From positions 1 through 64,000 of the forward strand of contig MHLM01000006.1 of assembly GCA_001821395.1 (NCBI GenBank): 64,000 nucleotides of DNA, in the 5' to 3' direction. Positions 5,132 to 38,792 of this stretch are shown here, one piece after another; positions within the stretch are counted from its first letter, which is position 1, and every line of letters begins with the position of its first letter. The position numbers were made by a program, and so were the translations under genes. The notes under the pieces were generated by a model. It was not told the origin of the DNA. It saw only the letters and a program-made list of their open reading frames with translations, and did not search any database. Source of the DNA: Candidatus Lloydbacteria bacterium RIFCSPHIGHO2_02_FULL_50_18. Its GTDB lineage: Bacteria > Patescibacteriota > Minisyncoccia > Phycocordibacterales > UBA6899.

Positions 5132-5888
5132 GACGGGAGATGTGATCGCGCTCGGTGATCACATCCTGATCTGTGGAGATGCGACAAAGGTTGACCTCGC
5201 GAGCATTGTGAAAGGCAGAGTCCACCTTGTCCTCACCGACCCGCCGTATGCGATCGACTACGTGGCGAGCAAGCGCAACATCGTCGGCGTGTCGAAGGAC
5301 AAGGATATTGCGAACGATGGCTTCATGAGTGATGCAGAGTATGTGACATTCACGAAGGGGTGGCTCACGCCAGTACTCCCCCTCCTTGAGAAGAAGAACA
5401 GCATCTACGTCTTCAACTCGGACAAGATGATCTTCGCTCTGAGGCAGGCATTCGTGGAGCTCAGGCTCAAGGTGGCACAGCTCATCATTTGGGTGAAGGA
5501 TCGCGCCATCGTCGGGAGACTCGACTACCTCCCACAACATGAGCTCATCCTCTATGGATGGCACGGGACCCACGACTTCAAGCGCGGGAAGGACAAGTCA
5601 GTCATGTTCGTGCCGAAGCCATCACGCAGTACGCTTCACCCCACCATGAAGCCGATCCCTCTCCTCCGCAAACTCATCTTGAACAGTACCGATGTGGGTG
5701 ACGTGGTCTATGACCCGTTCGGAGGGAGCGGATCGACGCTCATCGCCTGCGAACACACGAAGCGCAGATGCGTCATGGTGGAGATGGATCCCGAGTACTG
5801 CGCAACGATCGTTCGTCGCTACGAGCAGTTGATTAACCGCGAAGACAATGGCAAGCAAGCACCCCACAGTACTGGAAAAGCGAATTGA
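5091..5888 (+). CDS. Beta-class DNA methyltransferase (DPPY)
   Basis: LTDPPYAIDY (motif IV) then DPFGGSGSTLIA (motif I); overlaps the upstream MTase by 41 nt. Confidence 0.8.
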   Translation: MKNSPETKQSSSIKTGDVIALGDHILICGDATKVDLASIVKGRVHLVLTDPPYAIDYVASKRNIVGVSKDKDIANDGFMSDAEYVTFTKGWLTPVLPLLEKKNSIYVFNSDKMIFALRQAFVELRLKVAQLIIWVKDRAIVGRLDYLPQHELILYGWHGTHDFKRGKDKSVMFVPKPSRSTLHPTMKPIPLLRKLILNSTDVGDVVYDPFGGSGSTLIACEHTKRRCVMVEMDPEYCATIVRRYEQLINREDNGKQAPHSTGKAN

Positions 5889-9026: not shown

Positions 9027-11996
9027 CTAGTAATACTGCCTTATGTACTCATATGCTTTATCAAACAAAATATTATCTTTATGTAAGGCGTATTTATAGA
9101 GCGTCTTGCGAAGTGCCTGCTTGATCTCTCTCTCACCTGCTGCGGTACTCTGCCAACCCGGGAATCGTACAACTTTAACGATTCCATCTATGTCATTCAC
9201 TATGCGTTCTACTATTACAGGAGTTTGGTCAGTTTTGAGTTCAAGAAAAAGTTCGGAAAGAGCGGTCTTGGCACCATCTCTGCGTGTTTCTGTCTCAACT
9301 TCTTTTTCAGCCTGGACAGTTTCCTTCGCCAATTGAATAAGGTCTTTCAAAAACTCAATACTGTTAATTAGGCCCCGCTCAGCCTTATCCCTTAATTCCT
9401 CCAAGCGTTGACCAAGTGCGACAAAACGGGGGTCACCTTTGTGGCGAAGAAATCTCTTTGTAATCTCGATTTCAATTAGCTTAATTTTTTTCTTGTCAGT
9501 AGTGTGCATCAAATCCTCGATAACCTCTGCATCCAGAACTATTTCTTCGAGATGATCGTCAACTCCTTGGACGTGAATGTGTTCATGAATGAGTTTCATC
9601 GTCTGAGCACCAAGTGCATGCCAGAGAAGCCGACCTGTTTCTCCAGAGGGAGGGCGCACGGATTCATACACCTGCGATAACCATGTGTATTCATTCTGAA
9701 ATTTATTCAATATCGGATCTGGAGACAATGCTTCCCATATTTTACTTAAAACCGAGTAGTCCGCAGCATAGGCATCTCGTTTCTCGTCGGTATTTAAACA
9801 ATCCTGAGCTAGCAAAAGGCCTTCATAGCCCACCACAGATCGGTCGATGCCATGAAAATGACCGAGGCAAGTATTAACTGCTCCCTGAAGCTCATTTTTT
9901 AACTCGTTGAGATTTGTGATTACATACCGAACACTGGCATCGTCAAACTCGAGAGCTTTTGCAACATCATCGAATACGCCAAAATAATCCACGACTAATC
10001 CGTATGCCTTATCTTTATATACACGATTAGTGCGGCAAATGGCCTGTAGAAGGTTGTGATCTTTTAGCGCCTTGTCGAGATACATACACTGGAGAATCGG
10101 CGCATCAAACCCTGTAAGTAATTTAGCAGTAACGATCAAAAACTTAAGAGGATGCTCAGGATCCCGGAAGTTGTCGAGAAGTTTTTCCTGGTCTTCCTTG
10201 CTCATCTCATACTTCTGCTTAAGCATGGTGTCTGTTTCGCCCTTGCCGCCCGTTGAGATGACCACCGCACTTGCTTCCGGAGGTAAAATCTTATCAAGTT
10301 CTTGCTTATAGAGGTCACAGGCGTATCTGTCAGGAGTTACGATTTGGGCCTTAAAGCCCTGCGAATCAATTTTTTCTTGAAAATGTTTTACAACATCTTT
10401 AACGATTGTCTCAATGCGAGCAGGAGATTTAAGAAAAGCAGACATCTTTGCCGCTTCCTTTACCAAGCTCGTTCGATCGTCTTCTGAAAGATGTTCTGTC
10501 ATCTGGTCGAATTCAGCATCAATCAAGTCTCTGTCAACGTGAACATTCAATAGGCGCGGTTCGAAGTGCAGAGGGAGTGTTGCCTTGTCGCGAATTGAAT
10601 CCTGAAAAGTATATCGGGTCATGTAACCCTGATCATCTTCTTCGGCACCAAATGCCCAGAACGTGTTTCTTTCTGTTTTGTTGATAGGGGTACCAGTCAG
10701 ACCAAATAGGAATGCGTTCGGCAGGGCATCGCGCATTTTACGACCAAGATCACCCTCTTGTGTGCGATGAGCCTCATCTACCAAGACAATGATGTTTTCT
10801 CGTTCATTAAGCACGCCTCCAGCCTCAGCAAATTTAAAAATGGTAGTTATAATAATCTTTCTCGTATCCTTGTTTAAGAGATCGTGGAGTTCTGATCGTT
10901 TATCTGTTGACACAACATTTGGTATCTCTGTTGCGTTGAAAGTTCCTGTAATTTGAGTATCCAAATCGACTCGATCAACCACAACGAGAACGGTGGGGCT
11001 TTTTAATTCTTGAGATCGACGGAGCTTCTGCGCTGCAAATACCATCAATAGTGACTTACCAGATCCTTGAAAATGCCAAATGAGTCCCTTCTTCGGCCTA
11101 CCCGCCTTTACGCGCTCAATGATCAGGTTTGCGCCCTCCATCTGTTGGTAGCGGGCTATTATTTTTATCCGCTGCTTTCGCTTGTCTGTCGCAAAGAGCG
11201 TGAAGTTTTGAAGCAAGTCCAAAACAACTCCTGGATCAAGTGCTCCGGAAATCGCTTGTTTAATTTCAGAAAGACCCGCAATGGCACCTTTTGAGTCACG
11301 CCAAGGCCCCCACAACTCGAGCGGCATACGAATTGAGCCGTAACGGAATGTTTTACCCTCGGTTGCAAACGAAAACACATTTGGAACAAATAGTTGCGGG
11401 ATTGTATTTTCGTAATCGTCGTGAATATCGATCGCGCCGTCGAGCCAAGAAATAGAGGGGCGCACGGGTGTCTTAAATTCTCCCACGACGAGCGGAATTC
11501 CATTAACCAACATCACCAAATCGGGACGTTTCTCAGCCTTGCCTTGAACGGTGTACTGATTTGTGACAATGTATGTATTTTTCCCCAAGCTATCGAAATC
11601 AATAAAACTGATCGAAACGTGCTCATTATTTTCGCCAAACGGCATTGTCTTGTCACCACGGAGCCACGCAGAAAATTCTTCGTTCGCTCTAACGAGACCG
11701 GATGTTCCGACCGAGAGAAAGATCGCTCGTATTTTATATAAAACTTCGTCGGCTTTATTGGGGTCAGCTGCAATATCCGGATTAAGACGAATCAGAGCGT
11801 CTTTTAATAGCGACTCAACGATTGCATCTTTGGCTTCGCGCTTGAGTTGAGAGGAGGGAACGTATTGCCACTTCAAACCAGGGTGAAAAGCACTATCTGG
11901 GGCAAGATAGTTTGAATCCTGCATAAGCTCCGGGCTTATGCCGGTAAGTTCGTTCAAGATAAAGTGTTCGGTTGTATTTATTTCGTTAAATTTCAT
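9027..11996 (-). CDS. hsdR: Type I restriction enzyme R subunit
   Basis: 989 aa; SF2 helicase motif I FQGSGKS and DEAH box VLVDEAHRTQ; position after hsdS. Confidence 0.9.
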   Translation of the reverse strand: MKFNEINTTEHFILNELTGISPELMQDSNYLAPDSAFHPGLKWQYVPSSQLKREAKDAIVESLLKDALIRLNPDIAADPNKADEVLYKIRAIFLSVGTSGLVRANEEFSAWLRGDKTMPFGENNEHVSISFIDFDSLGKNTYIVTNQYTVQGKAEKRPDLVMLVNGIPLVVGEFKTPVRPSISWLDGAIDIHDDYENTIPQLFVPNVFSFATEGKTFRYGSIRMPLELWGPWRDSKGAIAGLSEIKQAISGALDPGVVLDLLQNFTLFATDKRKQRIKIIARYQQMEGANLIIERVKAGRPKKGLIWHFQGSGKSLLMVFAAQKLRRSQELKSPTVLVVVDRVDLDTQITGTFNATEIPNVVSTDKRSELHDLLNKDTRKIIITTIFKFAEAGGVLNERENIIVLVDEAHRTQEGDLGRKMRDALPNAFLFGLTGTPINKTERNTFWAFGAEEDDQGYMTRYTFQDSIRDKATLPLHFEPRLLNVHVDRDLIDAEFDQMTEHLSEDDRTSLVKEAAKMSAFLKSPARIETIVKDVVKHFQEKIDSQGFKAQIVTPDRYACDLYKQELDKILPPEASAVVISTGGKGETDTMLKQKYEMSKEDQEKLLDNFRDPEHPLKFLIVTAKLLTGFDAPILQCMYLDKALKDHNLLQAICRTNRVYKDKAYGLVVDYFGVFDDVAKALEFDDASVRYVITNLNELKNELQGAVNTCLGHFHGIDRSVVGYEGLLLAQDCLNTDEKRDAYAADYSVLSKIWEALSPDPILNKFQNEYTWLSQVYESVRPPSGETGRLLWHALGAQTMKLIHEHIHVQGVDDHLEEIVLDAEVIEDLMHTTDKKKIKLIEIEITKRFLRHKGDPRFVALGQRLEELRDKAERGLINSIEFLKDLIQLAKETVQAEKEVETETRRDGAKTALSELFLELKTDQTPVIVERIVNDIDGIVKVVRFPGWQSTAAGEREIKQALRKTLYKYALHKDNILFDKAYEYIRQYY

Positions 11997-13138
11997 GTAA
12001 TTACTTGAGTGAGGATTGCGTTTCGCATCGCCCTCGTTAGTTCGATAGAATTTTGCAACTGCTTCTTGATCTCCGTAAGTTGAGCAAGGTTCCTGAGAAT
12101 ATCTTTTTGCTTCTCGAGAGTAGGAACATAGATTTTATACTCGGAAACAATCTTATGAGATATGCGAGGCATCTTTGTCCCAAACCCCAGGGAAACAGCA
12201 TAGTGAATGAAACCATCAGAGTGTAGGTGGTGGAGAACGTATTCAATGTCTATATCAGGCGTTGCATCATACACAAGCAATTCCGTTGTACAGACTCCAT
12301 CAAATGATGGAATAACAGCCTTATCCAAATTGGGGCGTAGCTTGCTATAGAGCAATTGCCCGCTTTTGAAGACGTTGCAAGAGGACTGTGATTGTTGAGC
12401 GTCGCCATAAGCATCTACATTAAACGACCCTGGTTCAATATGCTCCAAACCTAAGTATTTCTCAAGTTTGTGTGGCGGAGCACTCTTCATCTTTGAAAGT
12501 TTTAAACATTCGCCTAGTTTTTTCCTGTCTAGTTTATTCTTAGTGAGTTCAGCAAAAATTGTCTTGAGTGTCAAATTTATTTTGTCCGCCGCGATTCTGT
12601 ATTTCTCTTCCAATTGATCTGACGCTATCAAAAGACCCAGTATTTTCTTCTGTACCTGACGGGGTGGCAGAAGAAATTTCTGTTGCGCAAGAATTTTCCA
12701 TTTAATGGTCGGTGAAAGTGAGCCTTCAGAGATATCTATCGCCCGATTCATAAATGCGTCAGAATGCATAAAGAATGGAAGAAAATCTGGTTCAATATGG
12801 GATGAATCTGCGCGGACGACCATCGCATGTGCGGAGCAAATTCCATCAAACTCTGCTATGGAGGCTTTTCTCTGGTATGCACGCCGTTTCCCAAAGATTA
12901 TGTCCCCTTTATATACACGAAGCTTGACGCCTTTTACATCAGACGGCACGCCGAATCGACGGATGTGAATAGAGTCGGAATCTAGATGTTCAAGACCAAC
13001 ATAAATATCGGCATCGGAACTGTTCGGGTCAACCCTTTCAGAGATATTCTTCGCTATATCACCAAACTTAGCCAACTCCCAATCGGAGCGGTTATGTTTA
13101 ACGAAAATATTTTCAGCTTGTTTATTAAGAGTTTTCAT
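11993..13138 (-). CDS. hsdS: Type I RM specificity subunit
   Basis: 381 aa with two TRD-like halves and conserved central/C-terminal repeats; operon position. Confidence 0.8.
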   Translation of the reverse strand: MKTLNKQAENIFVKHNRSDWELAKFGDIAKNISERVDPNSSDADIYVGLEHLDSDSIHIRRFGVPSDVKGVKLRVYKGDIIFGKRRAYQRKASIAEFDGICSAHAMVVRADSSHIEPDFLPFFMHSDAFMNRAIDISEGSLSPTIKWKILAQQKFLLPPRQVQKKILGLLIASDQLEEKYRIAADKINLTLKTIFAELTKNKLDRKKLGECLKLSKMKSAPPHKLEKYLGLEHIEPGSFNVDAYGDAQQSQSSCNVFKSGQLLYSKLRPNLDKAVIPSFDGVCTTELLVYDATPDIDIEYVLHHLHSDGFIHYAVSLGFGTKMPRISHKIVSEYKIYVPTLEKQKDILRNLAQLTEIKKQLQNSIELTRAMRNAILTQVIT

Positions 13139-14612
13139 ATGTTTTTTTGTCTAACATCTCTAAGAGAGATCGGGATCCCCTTTTTAGGTCAGAACTATTC
13201 TGAGACCATTCCTCTACTACCACTCGGAGTCCTTTTTCTTTAATACCATTCCCTTGAGTAGATATGTAGAGCGGAATATTAAGATTTGCGTTATTGTTGA
13301 GGATATTTTGATTGTCGATCACTTTCGTAAAATTTGGTATATCAATAAATTCCTTAAATGCTGCATGAATTCTTTCAACATGTGGATCTTCAAGAAAAGA
13401 AAAAGCATTCTGCCGCGTTACTTCTTTAACAGCATTTATAAAAAGTACTCTACCTTTTCGTTCTTTAGGTTTGTCCCAACGGCAAACCAACAAGCAGGCC
13501 TCCATGGGTGAGTTGTAAAATAGATTTGGGCCCAAACCGATGACTGCTTCGATTACGTCATCCTTTAGCATTTTTTCTCTGAACTCCCGCTCAGAATCAC
13601 GAAAGAGAACCCCGTGAGGCCAAAGGACAATGCTCCGGCCGTTTTTCTTGTCTAGGCTTTTGAGAATATGCTGCTCAAAAGCATAGTCTGCACATCCTTG
13701 TGGAGGGGTGCCGTAAATGTTTCTCCCGTAAGGATCATTCGTCCACGCATCTCGATTCCACCTCTTAACTGAATACGGCGGGTTCGCAAGGATGACGTCG
13801 AAGGTTTTAAGTTTGTCGTCCTCCAAAAACTTTGGGCTAGACAATGTGTCTCCACGCTCAATATGAAAGTCCTCGATTCCATGAAGAAACATGTTCATTC
13901 GCGCGATGGAGGATGTCATCAGATTCAACTCTTGCCCATAGAGCTTAAGCGTTCGGTATTCTTTACTCTGGTCCTTAAGTTGGTTTACGCAGTTCAGTAA
14001 TAACCCACCAGAACCACAAGTTGGATCGTATACGCTCTCACCTGGCTGGGGGTTCATTATCAAGCTCATTAAACGAACGACCGTACGATTGGTGTAGAAC
14101 TCAGCAGCTGTATGCCCACTATCATCTGCAAACTTCTTGATAAGGAATTCATATGCATTACCAAGTTCGTCATTGGGAACATTGGCAATGCTTAGGTCTT
14201 GTTCAGAAAAATGTTCGAGTAGGTCTATTAGAATCTCGTCAGATAGACGACTCTTGTTTGTCCAAGAGGCGTCGCCAAAAATACCGAATAAACGATCCTC
14301 GTTCGTCTTTTCAATTTTGCGGAGCGCCTTCTGTAGGGCATCCCCCACATTAACCGTCACCTGTCGAACATCATTCCAGTGTGCCCCTTTGGGAATTTGG
14401 AATCTATGATTTTCATCAAATTTTGCATATTCTTTGTCGCCCCCCGATTCATTGAGTGCCCGCTCGTATTCTTCTTTGTAGACATCACAGATGCGCTTAT
14501 AAAATAATAAGGGGAAAATATATTGCTTGTAGTCTCCAGCATCAATGACACCACGAAGAAGTGTCGCCGCTCCCCAAAGATATCTTTCCAGTTCTTGTTT
14601 TTTAATAGCCAT
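13125..14612 (-). CDS. hsdM: Type I RM N6-adenine methyltransferase subunit (paralog 1)
   Basis: 495 aa; VYDPTCGSGGLLL (motif I) and ILANPPYS (motif IV). Confidence 0.9.
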   Translation of the reverse strand: MAIKKQELERYLWGAATLLRGVIDAGDYKQYIFPLLFYKRICDVYKEEYERALNESGGDKEYAKFDENHRFQIPKGAHWNDVRQVTVNVGDALQKALRKIEKTNEDRLFGIFGDASWTNKSRLSDEILIDLLEHFSEQDLSIANVPNDELGNAYEFLIKKFADDSGHTAAEFYTNRTVVRLMSLIMNPQPGESVYDPTCGSGGLLLNCVNQLKDQSKEYRTLKLYGQELNLMTSSIARMNMFLHGIEDFHIERGDTLSSPKFLEDDKLKTFDVILANPPYSVKRWNRDAWTNDPYGRNIYGTPPQGCADYAFEQHILKSLDKKNGRSIVLWPHGVLFRDSEREFREKMLKDDVIEAVIGLGPNLFYNSPMEACLLVCRWDKPKERKGRVLFINAVKEVTRQNAFSFLEDPHVERIHAAFKEFIDIPNFTKVIDNQNILNNNANLNIPLYISTQGNGIKEKGLRVVVEEWSQNSSDLKRGSRSLLEMLDKKTYENS

Positions 14613-14613
14613 A

Positions 14614-16101
14614 CTATTTTGATATCAGAGAAAACCCATCTAAGAGTCTTTTGAGTTCTGTCTCAGCCTCCCATACCTCCTCGAGAGAATTCTTCAACTC
14701 TTTCGTGGCCTCTTCTACTGACGGGAGTGTCTTACCTGAAATCTTTTCAATATAAAGAGAAATATTTAGGCTCCAATCATTTGCCGCAATGTCTTTGAGG
14801 GTTGCCACCACGGCGTGGTCTTTAACACCCTTGAACGCAGAGTACCAGTCGAAAATCTGATCAACATGCCTCTGCTCAAGATAATTTTGAGCACGATCCA
14901 CGCGCACCTGGTCTGATGCGTCTATAAACAAAACCTTACCTTCTTTGTTGTCAGGCTTATTAGCACGAAATACTAAAATGCATGCGGCAACTGTTGCTCC
15001 ATAGAAGATATTAGGCCCAAGTCCTATCACTGCTTCAAGCGCATCTGTCTCTATTATTTTCTTTCTTATTTGTCCTTCTCGACCCTTGCGAAATAGTGCG
15101 CCATGAGGAAGAACCACGGCTATGCGTCCGCGAGGATAAGACATGGATTTGATCATGTGTTGCACCCACGCGTAATCTCCATAACCAGCTGGTGGTACCC
15201 CTGCAAAATTTCTACCGTATGGGTCCTGAATCCAAAGGTCATCACCCCACTTCTTTAGGGAGAAGGGTGGATTAGCAATAACGCAATCAAAGGTCGAAAG
15301 TTGATCGCCTTCATAGTATGCGGGACTTCGTAATGTATCTCCACGCTGAATTTGGAAGTCCTGAACATCGTGGAGGAACATGTTCATGCGAGCAATGGAT
15401 GAAGTGGTGAGGTTTTTTTCCTGTCCAAATATTTTTAGAGTGCGGGCGTCCTTACCATGAGAGCGTAGGTGCTCAACACAATTGAGTAGCATGCCTCCCG
15501 TACCACAGGCTGGGTCATATACAGTCTCACCTTCTTTTGGATCAATTATACGGCCCATGAGCTGAACAACTGTTCTCGGTGTATAAAACTCCCCCGCTTT
15601 CTTGTTTGTTAAATCAGCAAACTTTTTTATGAGGTATTCGTATGCCTGACCGAGCATGTCGAGGTCGACCGTTCCGTTTGCCAGCTTGTATTCAGAAAAA
15701 TGTTCAATAAGTTCCACCAATAAGCTGTCGGGCAACTTCTCCTTGTTGGTCCATTGTGCATCTCCAAAGATCCCATACAGAAAATCAGGATTGGCTTTTT
15801 CAATTTCACGAAATGCATACTGAAGCTTTGCTCCAACATTCTTTGTGGTGGCGCGCACATCTGCCCAATGACATCCATCAGGAATTATAAATCTATGGAA
15901 TTCTGGCAAAACTGCGTAACCCTCATCGCCCTTAGATTCTTCTAATAGCTTTTTATATTCATCATCATAAACATCTGAAAGTCGTTTAAAAAACAGGAGT
16001 GGAAAAACATATACCTTAAAATCAGCAGCATCAACTGGCCCCTTGAGTATCCATGCGGCTTGAGCGAGATGTTGTTCGAGTTGTGGGAGTGTCAATTTCA
16101 T
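14614..16101 (-). CDS. hsdM: Type I RM N6-adenine methyltransferase subunit (paralog 2, roughly 50% identical to paralog 1)
   Basis: 495 aa; VYDPACGTGGMLL and IANPPFS; collinear with paralog 1. Confidence 0.9.
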   Translation of the reverse strand: MKLTLPQLEQHLAQAAWILKGPVDAADFKVYVFPLLFFKRLSDVYDDEYKKLLEESKGDEGYAVLPEFHRFIIPDGCHWADVRATTKNVGAKLQYAFREIEKANPDFLYGIFGDAQWTNKEKLPDSLLVELIEHFSEYKLANGTVDLDMLGQAYEYLIKKFADLTNKKAGEFYTPRTVVQLMGRIIDPKEGETVYDPACGTGGMLLNCVEHLRSHGKDARTLKIFGQEKNLTTSSIARMNMFLHDVQDFQIQRGDTLRSPAYYEGDQLSTFDCVIANPPFSLKKWGDDLWIQDPYGRNFAGVPPAGYGDYAWVQHMIKSMSYPRGRIAVVLPHGALFRKGREGQIRKKIIETDALEAVIGLGPNIFYGATVAACILVFRANKPDNKEGKVLFIDASDQVRVDRAQNYLEQRHVDQIFDWYSAFKGVKDHAVVATLKDIAANDWSLNISLYIEKISGKTLPSVEEATKELKNSLEEVWEAETELKRLLDGFSLISK

Positions 16102-16331
16102 TTTGGTGACGATGTCAGCTTTTCAACGGTAGTCCCCAGAGCTGTGGCAATTTTTACCATCGTTGCCACTCGGGGATCAGGAGTGAGTCCGCTCTCAATC
16201 TTCGCAATGGTGTGATAATCAAGGCCGGTTTTCGTAACCAGCTTGCTCTTAGACAATCGCTTTTCATTTCTAATTTTTCTCAAGTTTCCTGCGATATTTG
16301 AGAATTTTTTTGGGTGAGATTTCTTTTTCAT
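16098..16331 (-). CDS. XRE-family HTH protein; candidate controller (C) protein of the RM operon
   Basis: 77 aa HTH_3-like (LSKSKLVTKTGLDYHTIAKIESG); 4-bp overlap with hsdM. Confidence 0.7.
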   Translation of the reverse strand: MKKKSHPKKFSNIAGNLRKIRNEKRLSKSKLVTKTGLDYHTIAKIESGLTPDPRVATMVKIATALGTTVEKLTSSPK

Positions 16332-16488
16332 ACGACAACCTTGCTTAGCATAATTATACCAAATTTATTGAGTTTTTGCTGCAATAAAAAGTGGATAAAA
16401 ATAGGGCTATTTGAGGGATGGTTACCAACAGCTTACCAACTGACCCTCCCTGGACTCCCTGGGAGGGTTGCGTCATCAATTGGTGTGT

Positions 16489-17844
16489 ATGAAAAATACA
16501 AACCCGCTAGAGGGCTCTGACGAGCCGAAAATTAAGTACTGTTTATACGCTAGAAAATCGAGCGAATCGGACGAGCAGCAAGCCCTTTCGATCGACTCCC
16601 AAGCCAAGGAGATGCTCCAGCTGGCGCAACGAGAGGGGCTTGATGTGGTCGACATCAAGCGCGAGTCGCACTCCGCAAAAAGCACCGGGCAACGCCCGGT
16701 CTTCAATGAGCTGATCAGCGACCTCAAGGAGGGCAAGTTTAATGCCATTCTCGCATGGCATCCGGATCGCTTAAGCAGAAATGCAGGCGACCTCGGTGCT
16801 ATCGTCGACCTGATGGACGAGCACCGACTTATCGAAGTGAGAACCTTTGGTCAAAAGTTTACAAATAGTCCAAGCGAGAAGTTTCTACTCATGATTCTAT
16901 GCTCGCAAGCAAAGCTTGAGAACGACAACAAGGGCGTGAACGTGAAGCGGGGGCTACGAGCAAAAGTTGAGATGGGACTATGGCCATGCGTTGCACCGAC
17001 CGGATACATCAACGACCGCATGCCTGGGCGTGCAGGATATGTGCTCGTCGACCCGGTGCGTGCTCCGATTATCAAGCAAATATTTGAAAAGGTCGGCAAT
17101 GACCGATGGAGCGCTAGGACGGTTTATAAATGGATGGTCAAAGAAGGAAAGTTCAATAGCGTGAGAAAAGGAAATAAGGCACTCACCCTGAGCACAATCT
17201 ATCGACTTCTGCATCAGCCTTTCTATTCGGGAACATTCGAGTACCCCACCGGGAGCGGTAACTGGTACAAAGGTCAACATGAGCCACTCGTTTCCAAGGA
17301 ACTCTTCGAGAAGGTGCAGCAAAAAATAGCGGAGGAGTTGAAGTCAAAGAAACAATATCAAGAATTCACCTTCACGAACCTTATGCTCTGCGGATACTGT
17401 GGGTCAGGTATTACCGCACAATCAAAAGACAAAAATCTCAAAGATGGGAGCGTCAAAAGTTACACCTACTACAACTGCACGCACAACAAGGATCACTTCT
17501 GCAAAAACCCGTTCATTCGCGAAGAAGAACTTCTCAAACAGATCGATGAGATCTTCGACAAGATCGATATCGACGAACTTGGAACACGGCATATCATTGA
17601 AAGAGAGGTTGCGCGATACAACAACATTCGGGCAAAACTCCTCGGCGCAAAAGAAAATGACAAAGCACTCGACGTCGACGTGCGAAACTATGCCAAGTAC
17701 ATGCTCAAAGAAGGCACGATGCTCGAAAAACGCGAACTCCTAGGGTGCCTAAAAAATAGAATTATTCTGAAGGATAAAACGATAACGCTTGAAAAAAGTT
17801 TGCAAATTAATGACTTAACGCCACAAACACAGATAGCACGCTGA
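16489..17844 (+). CDS. Large serine recombinase (resolvase domain, recombinase domain and zinc ribbon)
   Basis: YARKSSESDEQQALSIDSQ catalytic Ser region; C-terminal CGYCGS..YYNCTH; an alternative TTG start exists at 16468. Confidence 0.85.
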   Translation: MKNTNPLEGSDEPKIKYCLYARKSSESDEQQALSIDSQAKEMLQLAQREGLDVVDIKRESHSAKSTGQRPVFNELISDLKEGKFNAILAWHPDRLSRNAGDLGAIVDLMDEHRLIEVRTFGQKFTNSPSEKFLLMILCSQAKLENDNKGVNVKRGLRAKVEMGLWPCVAPTGYINDRMPGRAGYVLVDPVRAPIIKQIFEKVGNDRWSARTVYKWMVKEGKFNSVRKGNKALTLSTIYRLLHQPFYSGTFEYPTGSGNWYKGQHEPLVSKELFEKVQQKIAEELKSKKQYQEFTFTNLMLCGYCGSGITAQSKDKNLKDGSVKSYTYYNCTHNKDHFCKNPFIREEELLKQIDEIFDKIDIDELGTRHIIEREVARYNNIRAKLLGAKENDKALDVDVRNYAKYMLKEGTMLEKRELLGCLKNRIILKDKTITLEKSLQINDLTPQTQIAR

Positions 17845-18172
17845 GGATGACGAGTATCTTCACCCCACCTCCATACACAATCCAAGTAAATAATTTTTTT
17901 GCAGCAAGCATAACTATTCCGAGCACCAGAATGGAAACTCCAACGCCCGTGAGTGGGTCGTGCAATCCTTTCATAGGAGCATGAGTCCAAACAAAAAATA
18001 TACCTACGACAACCATAAGCCGCGCAATTATGTTAAACCAGCTTATGGAATCTTCGTGGCCAAAAGGAGCACCTCCTATGCCAACTTTCTTAGCAAAGAA
18101 GACACGAGTTACTGCTCCGGCAACACTTGCGATAACACGAATTACTAACTGTTGGAAAAAACTCCCATCCAT
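17807..18172 (-). CDS. Small four-TM membrane protein, last gene of the Ubl/E1 operon (candidate effector)
   Basis: 121 aa with four hydrophobic helices; 1-nt gap after the JAB-E1 stop; convergent 38-nt overlap with the recombinase 3' end. Confidence 0.5.
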   Translation of the reverse strand: MDGSFFQQLVIRVIASVAGAVTRVFFAKKVGIGGAPFGHEDSISWFNIIARLMVVVGIFFVWTHAPMKGLHDPLTGVGVSILVLGIVMLAAKKLFTWIVYGGGVKILVILSVLSVFVALSH

Positions 18173-18173
18173 A

Positions 18174-19565
18174 CTATTTTAAGTTCTCATCAAAAACTTG
18201 ATAACTATCATCATTTGAGTCTCCTTTTCCGGTAAATTCTGAGAATGGGCAATTTGGCAAGCAGTCTTCACCGAGTTTTCTTTCCAGCTCCCCGGTAACA
18301 AAATGGTATAGATTTTCACCGTGATGACTTATGCCGTTGGGTTTTACTACAAGTGCCAACATCTGTAGCACCATCATTGAGGCGAGGTGCATGCTAAAAG
18401 CAAAAACGTTTTGATTGTTCAAGTGATGGCGCAAACCGTCAACGGTGTTTATGTACTCCGAATCATCCAGCAGACCTTTGCGTTCAAGAGACACTTCAGC
18501 AAAGGTGTACTGCCCAATGCACGAGAGACATTTATTACCCGGGGTTGCAGTGTGCGCACGCCAATCCGCTGAGCGCAACAAATCCTCCTTGGTGTGCACT
18601 CGAATACCACCATCAACGACTGGAATCAGGTGTGTATAAGCAATGTAATTAAGAACGTGGCGCGCCCACGGCCTATCAACGCAACTGAACAGGAGGTCAC
18701 AATTTAGTGCACCTCGGTATCCCTCAGCTCCAGTTACATGAACTGGTAATCGTGTGACGAAAAAGTTGTCGGCAGTTGCGTGTTCAATAAGTCTTTTTGC
18801 AATTACATCCGTCTTCAATTCACCAACATCTTTTATCGTCGCATGCATAAGTCGATCGAGGTTGTGTTTCTTTACTACGTCAAAATCGATAAGCGAAATA
18901 TGCTGAACTCCAGTTCTAGCAAGTGCCTCAGCAATAGCACTTCCGACACTTCCCGTGCCGACTATTCCTATGTGTAAACGAGATAATTCGTCTTGCTTAT
19001 CTTGACCCCATGAAGAAATTGTACGTTTCAGTTCTTCTCTAAAACCCTGCGGCTTAAGCAGCGCGTCACAATAGGTGATAGAAAGGCCCATTTGACCTAT
19101 AGTGCGAACACTCTCGCACCATGATGGAGCATATTCCCGAACCCCGGTTCTATTCCAAAAACGAGCACTCCACGCACCATCTGTGCCTATAGTTAGTCCA
19201 AGGAGGGGTCGTTCTGTTATTCCAAAGGTTGCCGCAGCGTGCGATAACTCCGCCCGAACATCGGTCCTGCTCATATTCTGCCATCCAGGAAACGGGTGGC
19301 TATGCATAAAAGCAAGGCCCATATCTCGGGCGGATGCTATTTGTAGTGCTCTCTGAAAATACTCGGGAGAAAAACTCGCGTTGCCATGCACTTCCCGCTC
19401 TCCGTCTTCAGGAAGAATCGGTTCAACCAAGAGTGCTGTCAGTCTTTCTCCTCCGCTGCTCGGCTGCCACAAAGCAAAACATAAGTCTTCCTGCCCATCC
19501 TTACGCACAAGATGAGAAAAGAGTTTCTGGTTTACCTCGGTTGTCATCGCTACGCTGTATCTCAT
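18174..19565 (-). CDS. JAB/MPN (JAMM) metalloprotease fused to an E1-like ThiF/MoeB adenylyltransferase
   Basis: N-terminal HSHPFPGWQNMSRTD (HxH..SxxD JAMM motif); then GIVGTGSVGS..IDFDVVKKHNLDRL E1 Rossmann motifs; C-terminal CxxC pairs. Confidence 0.8.
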   Translation of the reverse strand: MRYSVAMTTEVNQKLFSHLVRKDGQEDLCFALWQPSSGGERLTALLVEPILPEDGEREVHGNASFSPEYFQRALQIASARDMGLAFMHSHPFPGWQNMSRTDVRAELSHAAATFGITERPLLGLTIGTDGAWSARFWNRTGVREYAPSWCESVRTIGQMGLSITYCDALLKPQGFREELKRTISSWGQDKQDELSRLHIGIVGTGSVGSAIAEALARTGVQHISLIDFDVVKKHNLDRLMHATIKDVGELKTDVIAKRLIEHATADNFFVTRLPVHVTGAEGYRGALNCDLLFSCVDRPWARHVLNYIAYTHLIPVVDGGIRVHTKEDLLRSADWRAHTATPGNKCLSCIGQYTFAEVSLERKGLLDDSEYINTVDGLRHHLNNQNVFAFSMHLASMMVLQMLALVVKPNGISHHGENLYHFVTGELERKLGEDCLPNCPFSEFTGKGDSNDDSYQVFDENLK

Positions 19566-19924
19566 AGTGTGTTGAGGAGTTTTATAACGTGAGCAAGGTA
19601 AACATCGACGTTACGTTTACTACTTTCCCAGCTCGGGTGCGGCCTACTAAGATGCATCCACTCAGGGCCAAAATCACTGTCGTGAATTCGATCACGATGC
19701 TCCTGTGATGAGGTGTTGGTGGGCAACGTACGCGGATGAATATGTGGGCCGTGGGGAGCAGTCAGCTCAAAGTCTCCTGGGACATCTACCCCAACGCGAA
19801 CTGTCTTGCCTGCAAGAGTTCCTTCGTTGACAGACAGCGCAAATGCCAGCCGATTGCCTTCAAGGTTTTCAACCTCAAAACCAAGATTCTTGAGACCTTG
19901 AATAAATTTTTCTTTGCCGCTCAT
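19562..19924 (-). CDS. E2/UEV-like protein lacking a catalytic Cys
   Basis: 120 aa, beta-rich, then PHGPHIHP (HPN-like) and two W.P-like motifs; no cysteine; 4-bp overlap with the E1 gene. Confidence 0.4.
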   Translation of the reverse strand: MSGKEKFIQGLKNLGFEVENLEGNRLAFALSVNEGTLAGKTVRVGVDVPGDFELTAPHGPHIHPRTLPTNTSSQEHRDRIHDSDFGPEWMHLSRPHPSWESSKRNVDVYLAHVIKLLNTL

Positions 19925-19929
19925 GTTGT

Positions 19930-20184
19930 TTACCCCACAGGCGTTTGTCCAGTAAACACCGTGACGAACTTCATGTGATTATGCATCTTGATCACCTCGT
20001 CCAAATCTTTATGCGGTTCCTGCTGATGACCCTTAACCTCAACCAAATAGTACTGCTGCGAATCGACATTCGCCATTGATAATATCTCTCGAACAGACAA
20101 CTCCTTCTTTTCAGTAGTGAGTGTTTCACCGTCGACCGTAAAATCGATACCGTGACCTTTTTCCTCCTTCTCGTGGTTTTCCAT
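19930..20184 (-). CDS. Ubiquitin-like beta-grasp protein ending ...TGQTPVG
   Basis: 84 aa; IDFTVDGE..YYLVEV..KFVTVF beta-grasp pattern; terminal Gly; 5-bp gap to the next gene. Confidence 0.5.
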   Translation of the reverse strand: MENHEKEEKGHGIDFTVDGETLTTEKKELSVREILSMANVDSQQYYLVEVKGHQQEPHKDLDEVIKMHNHMKFVTVFTGQTPVG

Positions 20185-20295
20185 ACAGTTTTTTTATATA
20201 ATTAATGAATTAACACATGAACCAATATTCCTCTTGACTCTGGACGAGAGTCGCGGTAACCTGTTTCATATGTAAGACAGTGTACACCTGAGGTG

Positions 20296-20315
20296 TTTCA
20301 CTAGTCAAACACTTT
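20296..20315. promoter_or_regulatory. Near-perfect 20-bp palindrome GTGTTTCACTAGTCAAACAC; candidate operator in the divergent promoter region
   Basis: 18/20 self-complementary; 9 bp upstream of the XRE start and upstream of the divergent Ubl operon. Confidence 0.45.
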
Positions 20316-20323
20316 TTTCATTT

Positions 20324-20674
20324 ATGAAACACAATAAAAACAGCGTCAATTTTGCTATTGAGCAATTGGGTCAGAAGGTCGCGCTTAAAAGATCGGGAAG
20401 CGGGATGAGAGATACCTCCGCAGAGATTGGCATCAGCCCTGCTACCCTCTCGCGAATCGAGAGGGGGTACATGCCCGATATCGGCACATTCCAAAAAGTA
20501 TGCACTTGGCTCAACATTGATCCGGGTGAAATTCTTGGTGCAAAAACTCACGTCAGTGAGGTGCAGATGGCAACTGTGCATTTTCGTAAGAAGCAAACGG
20601 TTGCTCCGGAAACCGCGCAAGCTTTAGCACAACTCATTATTGCAGTACAAAATAATGTTCTCGCATCAGAGTAA
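20324..20674 (+). CDS. XRE-family HTH repressor (CapH/ImmR-like)
   Basis: SAEIGISPATLSRIERG HTH_3; paired with the downstream ImmA peptidase. Confidence 0.8.
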   Translation: MKHNKNSVNFAIEQLGQKVALKRSGSGMRDTSAEIGISPATLSRIERGYMPDIGTFQKVCTWLNIDPGEILGAKTHVSEVQMATVHFRKKQTVAPETAQALAQLIIAVQNNVLASE

Positions 20675-20692
20675 AAAACTGATTATGTTGTC

Positions 20693-21271
20693 ATGTTTAA
20701 AAAAGGATTTAAAACCTGGTGTGAAAGAGCTTCAATTAGTACTCGCAGACAACTGGGTCTGCAATCTTTCGATCCGATAGACTTATACAAGGTCGCGGCA
20801 ATCGTCGAGGCTGATATTAAGTATCCAAAAGATGTTCCTGGGCTTGATAAAAAGTTTTTAAAAATTTTAACGGAGGAGGACCCAGATAGCTGGTCTGCAA
20901 TAACCATAAAAATAAAACAGAAAATCGTTATTATTCTAAACTCTGCCCACACCAAAGCGCGTCAGATGAGTAGTCTTGGTCATGAGTTATCTCATTTGAT
21001 TATCGGACACCCTGCGTCCAAAACTGGTATTTCAGCAGATGGGCTTTTGATAACTGGGTTCGATCGACTTCAAGAGGATGAGGCGGGATGGCTTTCGGGG
21101 TGTCTTCTTTTGCCCCATGATGCGTGTCAGTATATTAAAAAGACAAAGATGGACCAAAGCAGTGCTCAACGACATTACGGAATAAGCGCTGATATGTATA
21201 CATATCGCATGAACGCCTCTGGGGTAAATCGCTTGTGGACCCCTAAAGTAAGTAGCATTAAAGCGAAGTAA
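20693..21271 (+). CDS. ImmA/IrrE-family zinc metallopeptidase (CapP-like)
   Basis: HELSHLIIGH HExxH motif in the DUF955 context, directly after the XRE gene. Confidence 0.8.
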   Translation: MFKKGFKTWCERASISTRRQLGLQSFDPIDLYKVAAIVEADIKYPKDVPGLDKKFLKILTEEDPDSWSAITIKIKQKIVIILNSAHTKARQMSSLGHELSHLIIGHPASKTGISADGLLITGFDRLQEDEAGWLSGCLLLPHDACQYIKKTKMDQSSAQRHYGISADMYTYRMNASGVNRLWTPKVSSIKAK

Positions 21272-21302
21272 CGACCTATCAGGTCTAGAACCTTTAATGC
21301 CA

Positions 21303-21359
21303 AAAAGCGACCCTTCTGGGTCGCCTCTTGGGTCTCTGCGTCGGGGGTGCCTATAGGGA
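21303..21359. repeat. Putative attR: the partner of the 57-bp direct repeat, overlapping the tRNA-His 3' end and its terminator hairpin
   Basis: See 290..346; the GCGACCC-TTCT-GGGTCGC hairpin serves as the tRNA terminator. Confidence 0.75.
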
Positions 21360-21418
21360 ATCGAACCCTAGCTAAAGGCTCCACAAGCCTCTGTGCTAAC
21401 CGCTACACCATAGGCACC
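21346..21418 (-). tRNA. tRNA-His (GTG) with an encoded G-1
   Basis: Acceptor GTGCCTA/TAGGCAC, anticodon loop TTGTGGA, T-loop GGTTCGATTCC, extra 5' G pairing with discriminator C. Confidence 0.85.
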
Positions 21419-23999: not shown

Positions 24000-25559
24000 T
24001 TATTCGTCGTCATCCATTTTCGGTGCCAGACACTTTCGTGTCTCAACAACCTTTCCATCTTCTGCGACGCTTTCGATCTGCACACCGAAGCCCCAAAGGC
24101 GAGCGACATGTCGCAACACCTCATCCGTATCGTCATTCAACGGACGATTATTGGAACGTGTGTGACGCAGCGTCAGCGACCGATCCCCTCGCACATCAAC
24201 ATTCCATACTTGAATGTTCGGCTCCCGGTTTCCCAGGTTGTATTGATTCGAGAGCACCTCACGAACACGTCGATAGCCGGCATCATCATGGATCGCCGTC
24301 ACCACGTATTCTTCCTCATTCTCATCATCAAGGAGCGCGAAGAGATGAAAATCGCGGATGAGTTTCGGACTTAAGAACTGACCGATGAAACTCTCATCTT
24401 TGTAGTTGTGCATTGCATCGTGCAATACTGGCAACCAGTCCTTTCCCGCAATGTCCGGGAACCACTGCCGATCTTCATCGGTCGGCTCCTCACAGATACG
24501 CTTGATATCGGTATACATTGCGAAACCGAGCGCATAGGGATTGAACCCGTTGTAATACCTACTTGAGACCGGCGGCTGGTAGACCACATTGGTATGCGAC
24601 TTCAGGAACTCGATCATGAGTCCGTCGGACAGATACCCGTCATCGAACATCGTGTTCAATATCTTGTGATGCCAAAATGTTGCCCACCCCTCGTTCATCA
24701 CCTGCGTTTGGCGCTGCGGGTAAAAGTATTGCGCGATCTTTCGCACGATGCGCACGATCTCTCTTTCCCACGTCTGCAGATGCGGAGCCCGCTTTTCAAT
24801 GAAGTAGAGCAGGTTTTCCTCAGGCTCTTCCGGAAAACGTTTTTTCAAAGATTCCTTTGACGCGCTACCCGGTTTCGTTGGAACCGTGCTCCAGAGCTCA
24901 TTGACCTGCTGCTGCGCATATTCCGCATGCTCCGCTCTGCGTACCAACTCCTGTGCCAAACTCAATTTTTCCGGATGACGATAGCGGTCTACCCCGTAGT
25001 TCATGAGTGCATGGCAGGAATCGAGCACTTCTTCAACGCGTTCATACCCGTGTCTTTCCTCGCATGCTGCGATGTAATTCTTCGCGTACACGAGGTAGTC
25101 AAGGATGCTTCCCGCGTCAGTCCACATGCGGAACAAATAGTTGCCCTTAAAGAAACTGTTATGCCCATATGCTGCGTGTGCAATCACCAGCGCCTGCATC
25201 CCCATGGTATTTTCTTCCATGAGATAACTGATGCATGGACTCGAGTTGATCACGATCTCATAGGCGAGCCCCATTTCCCCGCGATGATAGCGTTGCTCAT
25301 TGGAGATGAACTCCTTCCCAAAGCTCCAATGCCGGTAATTGATCGGCATCCCGACAGACGCATATGCGTCCATCATCTGCTCGGCAGTGATGATCTCAAG
25401 CTGATTCGGATACGTATCAAGACCGAAGCGCTCTGCCGTGTCTCTGATCACCCGATGATATTGTTCGATCAGCGGAAATGACCATTCACCCGGCGACGGA
25501 AGTCGCTCGTGGGGTCGCTCTCCCGCAGGTAGCGGGATGCGTGGTATGACCTTGCTCAT
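24000..25559 (-). CDS. spoVR: SpoVR/YcgB family protein
   Basis: 519 aa; conserved N-terminal block; third gene of the prkA-yeaH-spoVR arrangement. Confidence 0.8.
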   Translation of the reverse strand: MSKVIPRIPLPAGERPHERLPSPGEWSFPLIEQYHRVIRDTAERFGLDTYPNQLEIITAEQMMDAYASVGMPINYRHWSFGKEFISNEQRYHRGEMGLAYEIVINSSPCISYLMEENTMGMQALVIAHAAYGHNSFFKGNYLFRMWTDAGSILDYLVYAKNYIAACEERHGYERVEEVLDSCHALMNYGVDRYRHPEKLSLAQELVRRAEHAEYAQQQVNELWSTVPTKPGSASKESLKKRFPEEPEENLLYFIEKRAPHLQTWEREIVRIVRKIAQYFYPQRQTQVMNEGWATFWHHKILNTMFDDGYLSDGLMIEFLKSHTNVVYQPPVSSRYYNGFNPYALGFAMYTDIKRICEEPTDEDRQWFPDIAGKDWLPVLHDAMHNYKDESFIGQFLSPKLIRDFHLFALLDDENEEEYVVTAIHDDAGYRRVREVLSNQYNLGNREPNIQVWNVDVRGDRSLTLRHTRSNNRPLNDDTDEVLRHVARLWGFGVQIESVAEDGKVVETRKCLAPKMDDDE

Positions 25560-26938
25560 GCTTTTCGCTCCTTTTGAAATAATCCACGGAATACGGGATA
25601 GATCTCACTCACTGCTTTCACCTTGCGGATAGCAAAGGACTTGTTTCTCTCGGCCAACTTTGCATATTCGCGCCAGAGGTTTTGCTCCTCTTCGACGACT
25701 TGAATATAGGCAAAGTAGCGGCACAAAGGCAACAATCTTGCCTCAAGCAGGTCGGAACAGGTCCCACTATCGTTCCCCCAATTATCACCGTCGCTTGCCT
25801 GCGCGCCGTAGATATTCCATTCACCTGACGGATAGCGTTCACGAATGATCTGCTCCATAAGCAAGAGCGCACTCGAAACGATGGTACCGCCGGTCTCCCT
25901 GGAGTGGAAGAATTCTTCTTCCGTCACTTCCTGTGCTTCAGTGTGATGCCGGATGAACACGATGTCGATCTTTTCATAATGCCGCGTCAAAAAGAGATAC
26001 AGCAGAATAAAGAAGCGTTTAGACAAGTCTTTACGCAGCTCATCCATCGAACCCGAAATATCCATGAGGCAGAACATGACCGCCTTTGAATACGGCATCG
26101 GCACACGCATACGAGCGCGATACTTCAGATCGATCGGATCAAGATAGGGAATGACCCGCATCTTCGATACGATCGCTGCAATGCGATTTGCGATGCTCTC
26201 GTGAGATTCAACCTCTGGATCGTGTCCGATCTTTGTCTCAAGCACACCGATCTCTTCAGTGAGCTTTTGATGCGCTTCGTCGTAACCGGCCGGACACATA
26301 TGACAGACCGACTCAAGCTGATCAAGCTCCTCAAGCAACTCCAGCAACTTTTTGCGGTCGTTCTTGTGGAATGCGATCCCGCGCCCGATCGAATTACGCA
26401 TCGAATGCACAATGGACAGATTATTCGGTGTCCCATCGTTCGTAAATCCCGATCGCACGCTCTTATATTCGGGCGTATCAGCAAGTGTCGTTTTGATCAG
26501 ATTCGGCAACGCGAGGTCGTCGAAAAAGATATTCATGAACTCTTCCTTGGTCAGATGGAAAACAAAATCGTCTTCCCCCTCACCCGAATCGCTCGCACTG
26601 CCTCCACTTCCCTGTCCGCCCCGTGGCCGCTCGATACGGTCACCGGTAACGTATTCTTCGTTACCCGGATGAACACCTTCGCGCGAACCACCCGGCCCAT
26701 GACCGAATACCGGCTCACGGAGGTCACGCTTCGGAATGCGCACGTCCTCGCCGCCATCTCCCACATCTCGGATCCCGCGACCTTCGATCGCGCGCTTTAC
26801 CGCCTCACGCACCTGCTCGCTCTGGCGACGCAGAAAACGTTGGCGATTACCAATAGACTTACCTTTGCCCGCCAAACGACGGTCGATCGGCGGGGGTAGT
26901 GTCCCGGAATCAACTCGCGTTATTTCATGATCACTCAT
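25556..26938 (-). CDS. yeaH: YeaH/YhbH (DUF444, vWA-like) protein
   Basis: 460 aa; operon partner between prkA and spoVR; 4-bp overlap. Confidence 0.75.
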   Translation of the reverse strand: MSDHEITRVDSGTLPPPIDRRLAGKGKSIGNRQRFLRRQSEQVREAVKRAIEGRGIRDVGDGGEDVRIPKRDLREPVFGHGPGGSREGVHPGNEEYVTGDRIERPRGGQGSGGSASDSGEGEDDFVFHLTKEEFMNIFFDDLALPNLIKTTLADTPEYKSVRSGFTNDGTPNNLSIVHSMRNSIGRGIAFHKNDRKKLLELLEELDQLESVCHMCPAGYDEAHQKLTEEIGVLETKIGHDPEVESHESIANRIAAIVSKMRVIPYLDPIDLKYRARMRVPMPYSKAVMFCLMDISGSMDELRKDLSKRFFILLYLFLTRHYEKIDIVFIRHHTEAQEVTEEEFFHSRETGGTIVSSALLLMEQIIRERYPSGEWNIYGAQASDGDNWGNDSGTCSDLLEARLLPLCRYFAYIQVVEEEQNLWREYAKLAERNKSFAIRKVKAVSEIYPVFRGLFQKERKA

Positions 26939-38321: not shown

Positions 38322-38792
38322 CTACTCGTCATCAGAAAATTCTTCCTGCAGTTTTGGGAAATGTTTATCCAAATAACTCTGCAGGATGATGGCCGCAGCC
38401 GACGCATCATTTTGGGGATTATCCCCCTGCAAATGCATTGCTTCCCGGGAAGAAAGCACTTCGTTCATAAGAAAAATGGGGAGCGACGTCGTCGTCTTCA
38501 ACTGTCCCATGAACACGCCGATCTTTTTCATGATCGGATTCGGTAGATTCTGAAAATTCAACGACTCACCAATAACGATGGCATCAATGTGTTCCTTTTG
38601 ACAAATAGCAACAATATCCTCGATCAAGGAGTGAGTATTCAAGATGACGCACAAAGGAAAGGCCATCGTTCCCCCATCTGGGGCAACCGCAAGCCCAACG
38701 CGCTTTGTTCCAAAATCAATACCTAAATATTTCATCTCTACACAGTAGCGCACGTTCTCTGAGGGCACAACGTGATGAGTTTCGGTGAGCAA
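38322..38792 (-). CDS. ruvX: Holliday junction resolvase-like YqgF/RuvX
   Basis: KYLGIDFGTKRVGLAV N-terminal signature. Confidence 0.85.
   Translation of the reverse strand: MLTETHHVVPSENVRYCVEMKYLGIDFGTKRVGLAVAPDGGTMAFPLCVILNTHSLIEDIVAICQKEHIDAIVIGESLNFQNLPNPIMKKIGVFMGQLKTTTSLPIFLMNEVLSSREAMHLQGDNPQNDASAAAIILQSYLDKHFPKLQEEFSDDE

Follow-up and report, generated by a model that had tools for sequence, protein, structure and literature searches.

Within the 64,000-nucleotide stretch analysed here (the window; positions 1 to 64,000 of contig MHLM01000006.1 of Candidatus Lloydbacteria bacterium RIFCSPHIGHO2_02_FULL_50_18), four closely packed minus-strand genes encode a ubiquitin-like protein (Ubl), a cysteine-free E2-like protein, a fusion of a JAB (JAMM) peptidase to an E1 enzyme (JAB-E1) and a protein with four transmembrane segments (four-TM protein). 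We consider it likely that this is a Bub-type operon for Ubl conjugation, close to the class known as '6e' or Type I Bub, in a minimal form with three enzymes. The assignment is made because the closest solved relative of JAB-E1, both by sequence and by fold, is the Citrobacter protein BubCD, and because the catalytic residues of the two proteins align. Type I Bub operons (6E.1) encode BubAB (a Ubl–E2 fusion), BubCD (a JAB–E1 fusion) and BubE (a DUF6527 serine protease with Ser and His) (PMC11601596). Six open reading frames (ORFs) described earlier from the letters alone, in what we call the sequence-only reading, were all present with the coordinates, spacing and motifs given for them (Table 1): the Ubl and E2-like genes are separated by 5 bp, the E2-like and JAB-E1 genes overlap by 4 bp, and 1 bp separates JAB-E1 from the four-TM gene. 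The operon genes are not chance ORFs, since JAB-E1 has homologues, the order of the first three genes is conserved and the four-TM ORF shows coding-type substitutions.

JAB-E1 carries most of the argument. It matched the Pfam family ThiF (E 2.7e-30), and more than 3,300 homologues were found at E ≤ 1e-3, the best 120 listed aligning over 94–100% of its length. Citrobacter BubCD was the best sequence match in the PDB, with E-values of 2e-23 for the single sequence and 4e-36 for a 28-sequence profile. An AlphaFold2 (AF2) model built on the 28-sequence alignment reached a predicted local distance difference test score (pLDDT) of 86.9 and a predicted template-modelling score (pTM) of 0.90, and when it was compared with the PDB by Foldseek the top eight matches were all BubCD chains, aligned over the full length (E 8.7e-34, TM-scores 0.74/0.77); Uba4 and ThiF ranked next, at about 1e-13. 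PADLOC models of the E1–E2 protein of CBASS (a system of antiphage signalling based on cyclic oligonucleotides) covered only the Rossmann core.

In order to place individual residues, JAB-E1 was mapped onto BubCD from a Citrobacter braakii plasmid, which retains the published numbering. The JAMM residues are E26, H88, H90, S99 and D102, the adenylation residues R238 and D297, and the crossover loop carries Tyr371; E26, H88, H90, D102, R238 and Y371 align to BubCD E28, H91, H93, D104, R227 and Y370, respectively. The aligned catalytic residues are at least 97% conserved among 82 sequences, Y371 being present in 82 of 82, and no conserved Cys was found across these sequences in the crossover loop (positions 350–388, from the CxxC to N386). 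Judged by its sequence, JAB-E1 has an intact JAMM site, a Cys-free crossover loop with an invariant Tyr and the adenylation Arg, as does Type I BubCD. Its zinc site is formed by C346/C349 and C435/C439, cysteines of the ThiF/MoeB-type CxxC...Cx3C pattern that are at least 97% conserved in the clade. Citrobacter BubCD differs in this respect, as it has lost the first pair and has T340 and D343 at the aligned positions.

A scan of species-representative genomes found relatives of JAB-E1 in 483 stretches, the best 80 of which were taken as related loci; 82 loci were analysed in all. The best 80 come from many phyla, including groups of the candidate phyla radiation, at about 50% identity to JAB-E1 of the window. 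The Ubl, E2-like and JAB-E1 genes are syntenic in 79–81 of the 82 loci and, besides these three and an M78 peptidase gene, no gene is conserved across the loci. The neighbourhood survey proposed with the sequence-only reading thus recovered a conserved JAB-E1 operon core, but not a conserved membrane gene. Full-length homologues of JAB-E1 occur on 102 plasmids, and an actinobacterial plasmid copy has the same three genes and no BubE. Among 50,697 phage records there was no full-length homologue, only matches to the E1 core with coverage of at most 40%, and a phage-encoded origin is unlikely for this reason. The operon is also carried by metagenome-assembled genomes (MAGs) of Nomurabacteria and Parcubacteria (L011 and L019); Candidatus Lloydbacteria is itself a lineage of the candidate phyla radiation. 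One related locus, L024, has a second, distant E1-like gene (12317–13972) near another XRE gene.

An E1 with a JAB partner and a small carrier protein could instead belong to a sulfur-carrier pathway or to cofactor or siderophore biosynthesis, as in triads with a ThiS- or MoaD-like carrier. The E1 domain does score against ThiF/MoeB models, and the zinc-binding cysteine pairs typical of MoeB and ThiF are kept; these scores, however, all lie far below the cut-offs of the models. No rhodanese domain was detected on JAB-E1 in a Pfam scan, and no sulfurtransferase, ThiG/MoaE or biosynthetic neighbour was found at the window or in 80 relatives, where the Ubl ends in VG or VS. Moreover, an E2-like partner is never missing, the surrounding genes are restriction-modification (R-M), recombinase and CapP-like genes, and BubCD surpasses ThiF and Uba4 as a structural match by 20 orders of magnitude. 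We regard a biosynthetic role as highly improbable. The constant E2-like partner and the lack of biosynthetic neighbours bear out the earlier view that this is a Ubl-conjugation operon.

The second enzyme of the proposed cascade is the E2-like protein. Complete conservation across the 78 members of its family is limited to His61 and Ser93, the latter in a W-x-Y-W-S-R-P motif. The Pfam family Prok-E2_E matched 17 of 24 family members and not the window protein alone; a profile check for a UBC, UEV (ubiquitin E2 variant) or RWD domain, suggested earlier, was therefore positive at the level of the family, with Citrobacter BubB as its top PDB match (E 0.047), and negative for the single sequence. 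Comparison of profiles by hhalign gave a probability of 80% with BubB and 89% with a protein annotated as 'E2/UBC family protein' that Rhizobium phaseoli encodes in an operon with DUF6527; a value of 2% for human UBE2D2 was uninformative. HMMER, hhalign and MAFFT alignments all placed Ser93 on the catalytic S333 of BubB, and in the MAFFT alignment R94 and P95 correspond to R334 and H335. We take Ser93 to be a putative catalytic Ser that would work with helper residues different from those of BubB. A word-indexed homologue search with this protein returned only an identical protein from a Candidatus Lloydbacteria MAG, and a single-sequence AF2 model had a pLDDT of 48.9 and was left out of the fold search.

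The Ubl of the window ends in Gly84. Its syntenic relatives include proteins that match the Pfam family Multi_ubiq (10 of 36, best E 1e-17), and together with the Prok-E2_E matches and the similarity of JAB-E1 to BubCD these support the domain calls made from the sequence (Ubl, Cys-less E2-like protein, JAB-E1 fusion). The Ubl and E2-like domains are fused in a BubAB-like manner at 10 of the roughly 80 related loci, with the junction ...TPVS|D. Elsewhere in the clade the terminus is mostly ...TPVS: among 65 separate Ubl genes, 49 encode a final Ser, 4 Ala and 2 Gly, so that TPVG in the window (19930–19935) is an exception. Citrobacter BubA, by comparison, is reported to end in Gly. Many Ubls of the clade are also extended at the N-terminus by one or two further beta-grasp-like repeats (Table 1), resembling the reported diversity of BubA, which has one to three domains. 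A comparison of the Ubl family with a Rhizobium multiubiquitin protein by hhalign (3.6%) was uninformative.

Several observations weigh against a Bub assignment. The identity between JAB-E1 and BubCD is just 23–24% in the Foldseek alignment. For the Ubl itself, the Multi_ubiq score (E 1.3e-4) lies under the gathering threshold and a PDB profile search with the family gave only chance matches to galectins; the presumed beta-grasp fold rests on this sub-threshold score and on the matches of family members. The residues that help the catalytic Ser of Type I Bub, H335 and D299, are not conserved in the E2-like clade: the position of H335 is Pro95 (Pro in 90% of the clade), that of D299 is variable (H58 in the window), and the invariant His61 appears instead. 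Since these accompanying residues are not conserved, the catalytic competence of Ser93 is itself inferred. No match of the upstream XRE protein to the PADLOC capH model was seen at E ≤ 0.1. All Bub operons, 544 in the set of Ye et al., are described as possessing bubE (PMC11601596), yet no DUF6527 gene was found among 79 downstream ORFs taken from related loci, Cys-cluster motif searches for a DUF6527-like ORF found none, and a phmmer search with Rhizobium DUF6527 as the query, run on the window and every locus translated in six frames, returned only the self-match. Finally, Ye et al. found no protection against phage by Bub, and no target has been reported for any Bub operon (PMC11601596).

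We nevertheless favour a Bub-type operon. DUF6527 directly follows the E1 gene in Rhizobium and Citrobacter plasmids. The BubE-containing Rhizobium operon also has split Ubl and E2 genes, indicating that the Ubl–E2 fusion is not universal in Bub. The altered helper residues raise the possibility that the E2-like protein is a dead UEV/RWD-type adaptor that binds Ubl, with the E1 transferring Ubl directly or the Ubl-adenylate being the end product. The protein has no Cys, an analysis of 2006 described the fold of this class as inactive and E2/RWD-like, and it lacks counterparts of H335 and D299, which accompany the catalytic Ser in Bub. Against this, Ser93 and His61 are its two sole invariant polar residues in a family with 43% identity, which is hard to square with a pure adaptor, and Ser93 falls on S333 of BubB, where the S333A/H335A mutant abolishes conjugation in Citrobacter (PMC11601596). 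We therefore consider the adaptor alternative unlikely, and the description of the E2-like protein as UEV-like and inactive was not upheld.

The four-TM gene is a different case, in that it is confined to a single lineage. Pfam, PADLOC and NCBIfam gave no match to its product, no homologue beyond its own cluster was found among 5.8 billion proteins or 1.84 billion representatives, and none is present in 80 related loci; outside the window it is restricted to the near-identical locus L003 and to contigs belonging to its own lineage. The substitutions that separate it from its closest relative follow a coding pattern (synonymous in 21 codons and non-synonymous in 13, while 22 of the 36 differences fall on third positions), so that the gene is probably genuine. 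An ORF with a hydrophobic segment lies just downstream of the operon in 12 of 82 loci and, L003 aside, none of these is homologous to the membrane protein of the window. Two identities were tried for the product and rejected: a diverged BubE, as a Cys cluster is lacking and BLASTP showed no similarity to DUF6527, and a conserved effector, as no homologue exists in related loci or in protein databases beyond its own lineage. The gene is a lineage-specific add-on in the bubE slot, outside the conserved machinery.

It had been proposed that the operon is an abortive-infection or assembly-interference module with the four-TM protein as the effector or target of Ubl conjugation. The gene begins 1 bp past the JAB-E1 stop codon and is probably co-transcribed, it evolves as coding sequence and is retained in all contigs of the lineage, and it has the position and approximate size of bubE in classical operons. 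The absence of homologues from the related loci and from the databases searched argues in the other direction, however, as do the scarcity and non-homology of hydrophobic ORFs downstream of other operons and the lack of similarity to DUF6527. Since the related loci lack the gene, the conserved system functions without it, and we judge a membrane effector or target integral to the system to be improbable.

By homology with Citrobacter Bub, the conserved residues point to the following pathway. The E1 domain of JAB-E1 would bind the Ubl and adenylate Gly84; Tyr371 would then attack the adenylate to give a Ubl~Tyr oxyester, from which the Ubl would pass on to form a Ubl~Ser oxyester with Ser93 of the E2-like protein and finally be transferred to lysines of target proteins. 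The JAMM domain would most likely act as a deconjugating or recycling peptidase rather than as a processor of a pre-protein, because the Ubl gene ends at the mature Gly and BubE is missing.

Upstream of the operon, a divergent pair of genes encodes an XRE-family helix-turn-helix (HTH) protein and an M78 peptidase. The M78 protein matched Pfam Peptidase_M78 (E 2.8e-9) and the PADLOC capP model (E 1.4e-8), the latter only in the peptidase half (positions 15–129 of a 242-position model). Lau et al. (2022, bioRxiv 10.1101/2022.04.27.489752) describe CapH and CapP as regulators of CBASS and other defence operons. The HTH_3 match, the HELSH-containing Peptidase_M78 domain, the capP score and the divergent order together agree with the CapH/CapP-like pair recognized in the sequence-only reading, and the arrangement, with XRE HTH and M78 zinc-peptidase genes upstream of an effector operon, is that of CapH and CapP. 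The pair departs from these in that the M78 protein is short (192 aa) with partial capP coverage and the XRE protein has no match to the CapH model. One M78 cluster is represented in 59 of 81 related loci, nearly always on the opposite strand and upstream of JAB-E1 at a median distance of about 1.2 kb, and recognizable XRE homologues occupy the same divergent position in nine. By analogy with CapH/CapP, the pair probably acts as a stress switch: the XRE repressor, with the M78 peptidase, would hold the operon silent until there is a signal of stress or DNA damage, upon which the peptidase would cleave the repressor.

The 139 bp between the divergent genes hold a palindrome, GACTCT-N5-AGAGTC (~20236–20252), which is a candidate operator; a TTTCAT..ATGAAA inverted repeat that overlaps the XRE start codon is another. 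The minus strand carries a sigma-70-like site at 20308–20279 (9 of 12 positions matched), the number of such sites not exceeding the shuffled expectation, and scans of promoters and terminators likewise gave nothing above shuffled expectation. In the actinobacterial operon without BubE, on the Clavibacter plasmid pCCa (L088, 1569–2696), one 375-aa 'HigA family' protein, possibly an HTH–M78 fusion, serves as the upstream regulator; it adjoins an AbiE toxin–antitoxin pair.

The operon and its regulators lie between a large serine recombinase gene, convergent with the four-TM gene and overlapping it by 38 bp, and a tRNA-His gene. Homology between the window and L003, the nearest genome, is confined to 16433–21369, from the start of the recombinase to a point 27 nt into the 3' end of tRNA-His. 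In L003 the module edge is marked by 27 nt that form a degenerate copy of this tRNA 3' end, and the full tRNA-His lies 2.7 kb farther (L003:2402–5223, compared with 21343–21369 in the window), the intervening ~2.7 kb holding extra genes that include a histidine phosphatase and NUDIX. Given the full tRNA-His, the extra genes and the degenerate 3'-end copy, this arrangement points to a second insertion in L003, again at the tRNA-His hotspot. Within the window no second att-like copy of the tRNA-His 3' end was found. The recombinase of L003 is split into ORFs of 302 and 153 aa and may be a pseudogene.

The far flanks differ: in the window a type I R-M system directly adjoins the module, and L003 has a helicase-like gene. 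The R-M genes occupy 9027–16101 and comprise hsdR (989 aa), hsdS (381 aa) and two tandem hsdM paralogues (495 aa each). Genes downstream of the operon in other loci include methylases, TIR and ArdC. The 4.9-kb module behaves like one discrete cassette that occupies a tRNA-His hotspot in a defence-type island, in agreement with the tRNA-adjacent mobile or defence island proposed from the sequence, and its context of recombinase, tRNA-His and R-M genes suggests a role in defence or stress response. The R-M system also includes a small HTH gene (16098–16331) that matches R-M control-protein and capH models, and two further N6/N4 methylase genes are located at 3812–5888. Past the tRNA, from 24000 to 26938 and beyond, are genes labelled by Pfam as SpoVR (519 aa) and DUF444/YeaH-like (460 aa). 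ARAGORN also reported a 621-nt permuted 'tmRNA*' at 38328–38948 that overlaps tRNA-Ser (38854–38942), a doubtful call.

Table 1. Features of the module in the window, followed by examples of Ubl genes at related loci (positions prefixed by the locus)
Feature	Position	Strand	Description
Large serine recombinase	16468–17844	+	Pfam Resolvase, Recombinase and Zn_ribbon_recom
Orphan four-TM protein	17807–18172	-	121 aa; four hydropathy segments; lineage-specific accessory
JAB-E1	18174–19565	-	463 aa; HSHP...SRTD, GTGSVG, DFDVV..NLDRL, CLSC (346–349), CLPNC (435–439)
E2-like protein (BubB-like, Prok-E2_E family)	19562–19924	-	120 aa; zero Cys; PHGPHIHP
Ubl (BubA-like)	19930–20184	-	84 aa; C-terminus ...FTGQTPVG; single presumed beta-grasp-type domain without C-terminal extension
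Divergent intergenic region	20185–20323	.	139 bp; presumed promoter/operator serving both the regulator pair and the Ubl operon
XRE-family HTH regulator (CapH-like position)	20324–20674	+	116 aa; Pfam HTH_3, E 3e-8
M78 (ImmA/IrrE-type) zinc metallopeptidase (CapP-like)	20693–21271	+	192 aa; HELSH
tRNA-His (GTG)	21343–21418	-	ARAGORN; borders the module
Related Ubl ORFs, examples with their ends	L005:6353–6619; L031:6396–6626		
Ubl genes of 145–187 aa	L009, L017, L023, L038, L026, L050, L057		
Ubl gene of 373 aa	L033:5868–6989		

To our knowledge, Bub systems are the sole known ubiquitin-like cascades that proceed through oxyester (Tyr/Ser) rather than thioester intermediates. The widespread minimal clade, lacking BubE, with Ubl and E2 split and mostly under an ImmA/XRE switch, would offer a simpler system in which to seek targets and phenotypes, and would permit asking whether the JAB domain alone reverses conjugation. 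For annotation, clusters recorded as a 'ThiF family adenylyltransferase' and two hypothetical proteins should be labelled as Bub-like conjugation operons, those of candidate-phyla-radiation bacteria included. It is also conceivable, though we put this forward tentatively and think it less likely than not to hold in full form, that the three-gene clade without BubE is a distinct third Bub type, with relatives in at least 483 species genomes and M78 in 59 of 81 loci, in which deconjugation would fall to the JAMM domain alone, a pair of Ser and His61 would replace Ser-His-Asp in the E2, the Ubl would mostly end in Ser, and a four-TM partner would have been recruited to the bubE slot in the Lloydbacteria-like lineage.

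The sequence-only reading had held that the combination of genes matched no known architecture, since known bacterial systems including Bub were thought to keep JAB and E1 apart and to use a Cys-bearing E2 and a GG terminus. For Bub this proved mistaken on each point. Operons of type 6e were described by Iyer, Burroughs & Aravind (2006, PMC1779556) as containing a Ubl, either solo or as a polyUbl, together with an E2/RWD-like domain that is inactive and lacks the Cys, a JAB fused to the E1 and a protein that binds metal. In some cases a gene of its own, placed between those for the Ubl and JAB+E1, encodes the E2-like domain, and the operons are highly mobile (PMC1779556). The metal-binding protein 'Y' has a C-x3-C...H-x2-C motif (PMC1779556); from this description and its operon position we take it to be present-day DUF6527/BubE. 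System 6E was renamed Bub by Ye, Gong, Chambers & Corbett (2024, PMC11601596), who reported structures of the Citrobacter proteins (PDB 9ea4, 9eae and 9eav). Type I Bub has no catalytic Cys and uses a Tyr of the E1 crossover loop (Y370) and a Ser of the E2 (S333), the latter paired with an invariant His at +2 (H335) and an Asp (D299), and BubA is cleaved by BubCD after a single Gly (PMC11601596). CapH and CapP accompany 31% of Bub operons, and the operons studied lie within tRNA-inserted mobile elements (PMC11601596).

The bacterial Bil (BilABCD) and type II CBASS Cap2/Cap3 systems resemble the operon in that they combine E1, E2 and JAB proteins for conjugation in defence islands. They differ from it in having a separate JAB and thioesters on catalytic Cys residues of the E1 and E2, with Cap2 being an E2–E1 fusion. 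The likeness to 6e is closer and comprises the solo Ubl, the Cys-less E2/RWD-like domain, the JAB+E1 protein and the Pfam families PF14452 (Multi_ubiq) and PF14462 (Prok-E2_E); protein 'Y' is missing from the window operon, and the E2-like domain that was predicted in 2006 to be inactive was later found by biochemistry to use its Ser. With Type I Bub the operon shares the fold and domain packing of JAB-E1 (TM-score 0.74–0.77) and all tested catalytic residues, a Cys-less E2 with a Ser aligned to S333, a Ubl of presumed Multi_ubiq type with a single terminal Gly, the frequent presence of CapH/CapP-type regulators and an association with tRNA-adjacent mobile elements and plasmids. It is set apart from Type I Bub by Ubl and E2 genes that are separate, 5 bp apart and without a BubAB fusion, by the absence of BubE/DUF6527 from the window and about 80 related loci, by an E2 with invariant His61 in place of H335 and D299, and by the orphan four-TM gene in the bubE slot of the window. 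On balance, the earlier interpretation stands in its domain calls, its regulators, its island and the class of conjugation system, and fails in its claims of novelty, of a dead E2 and of a membrane effector. The architecture is already known as 6e/Type I Bub; what is new here, modestly, is a split-gene variant without BubE that has an altered E2 helper residue, a clade of Ubls mostly ending in Ser and an orphan membrane gene.

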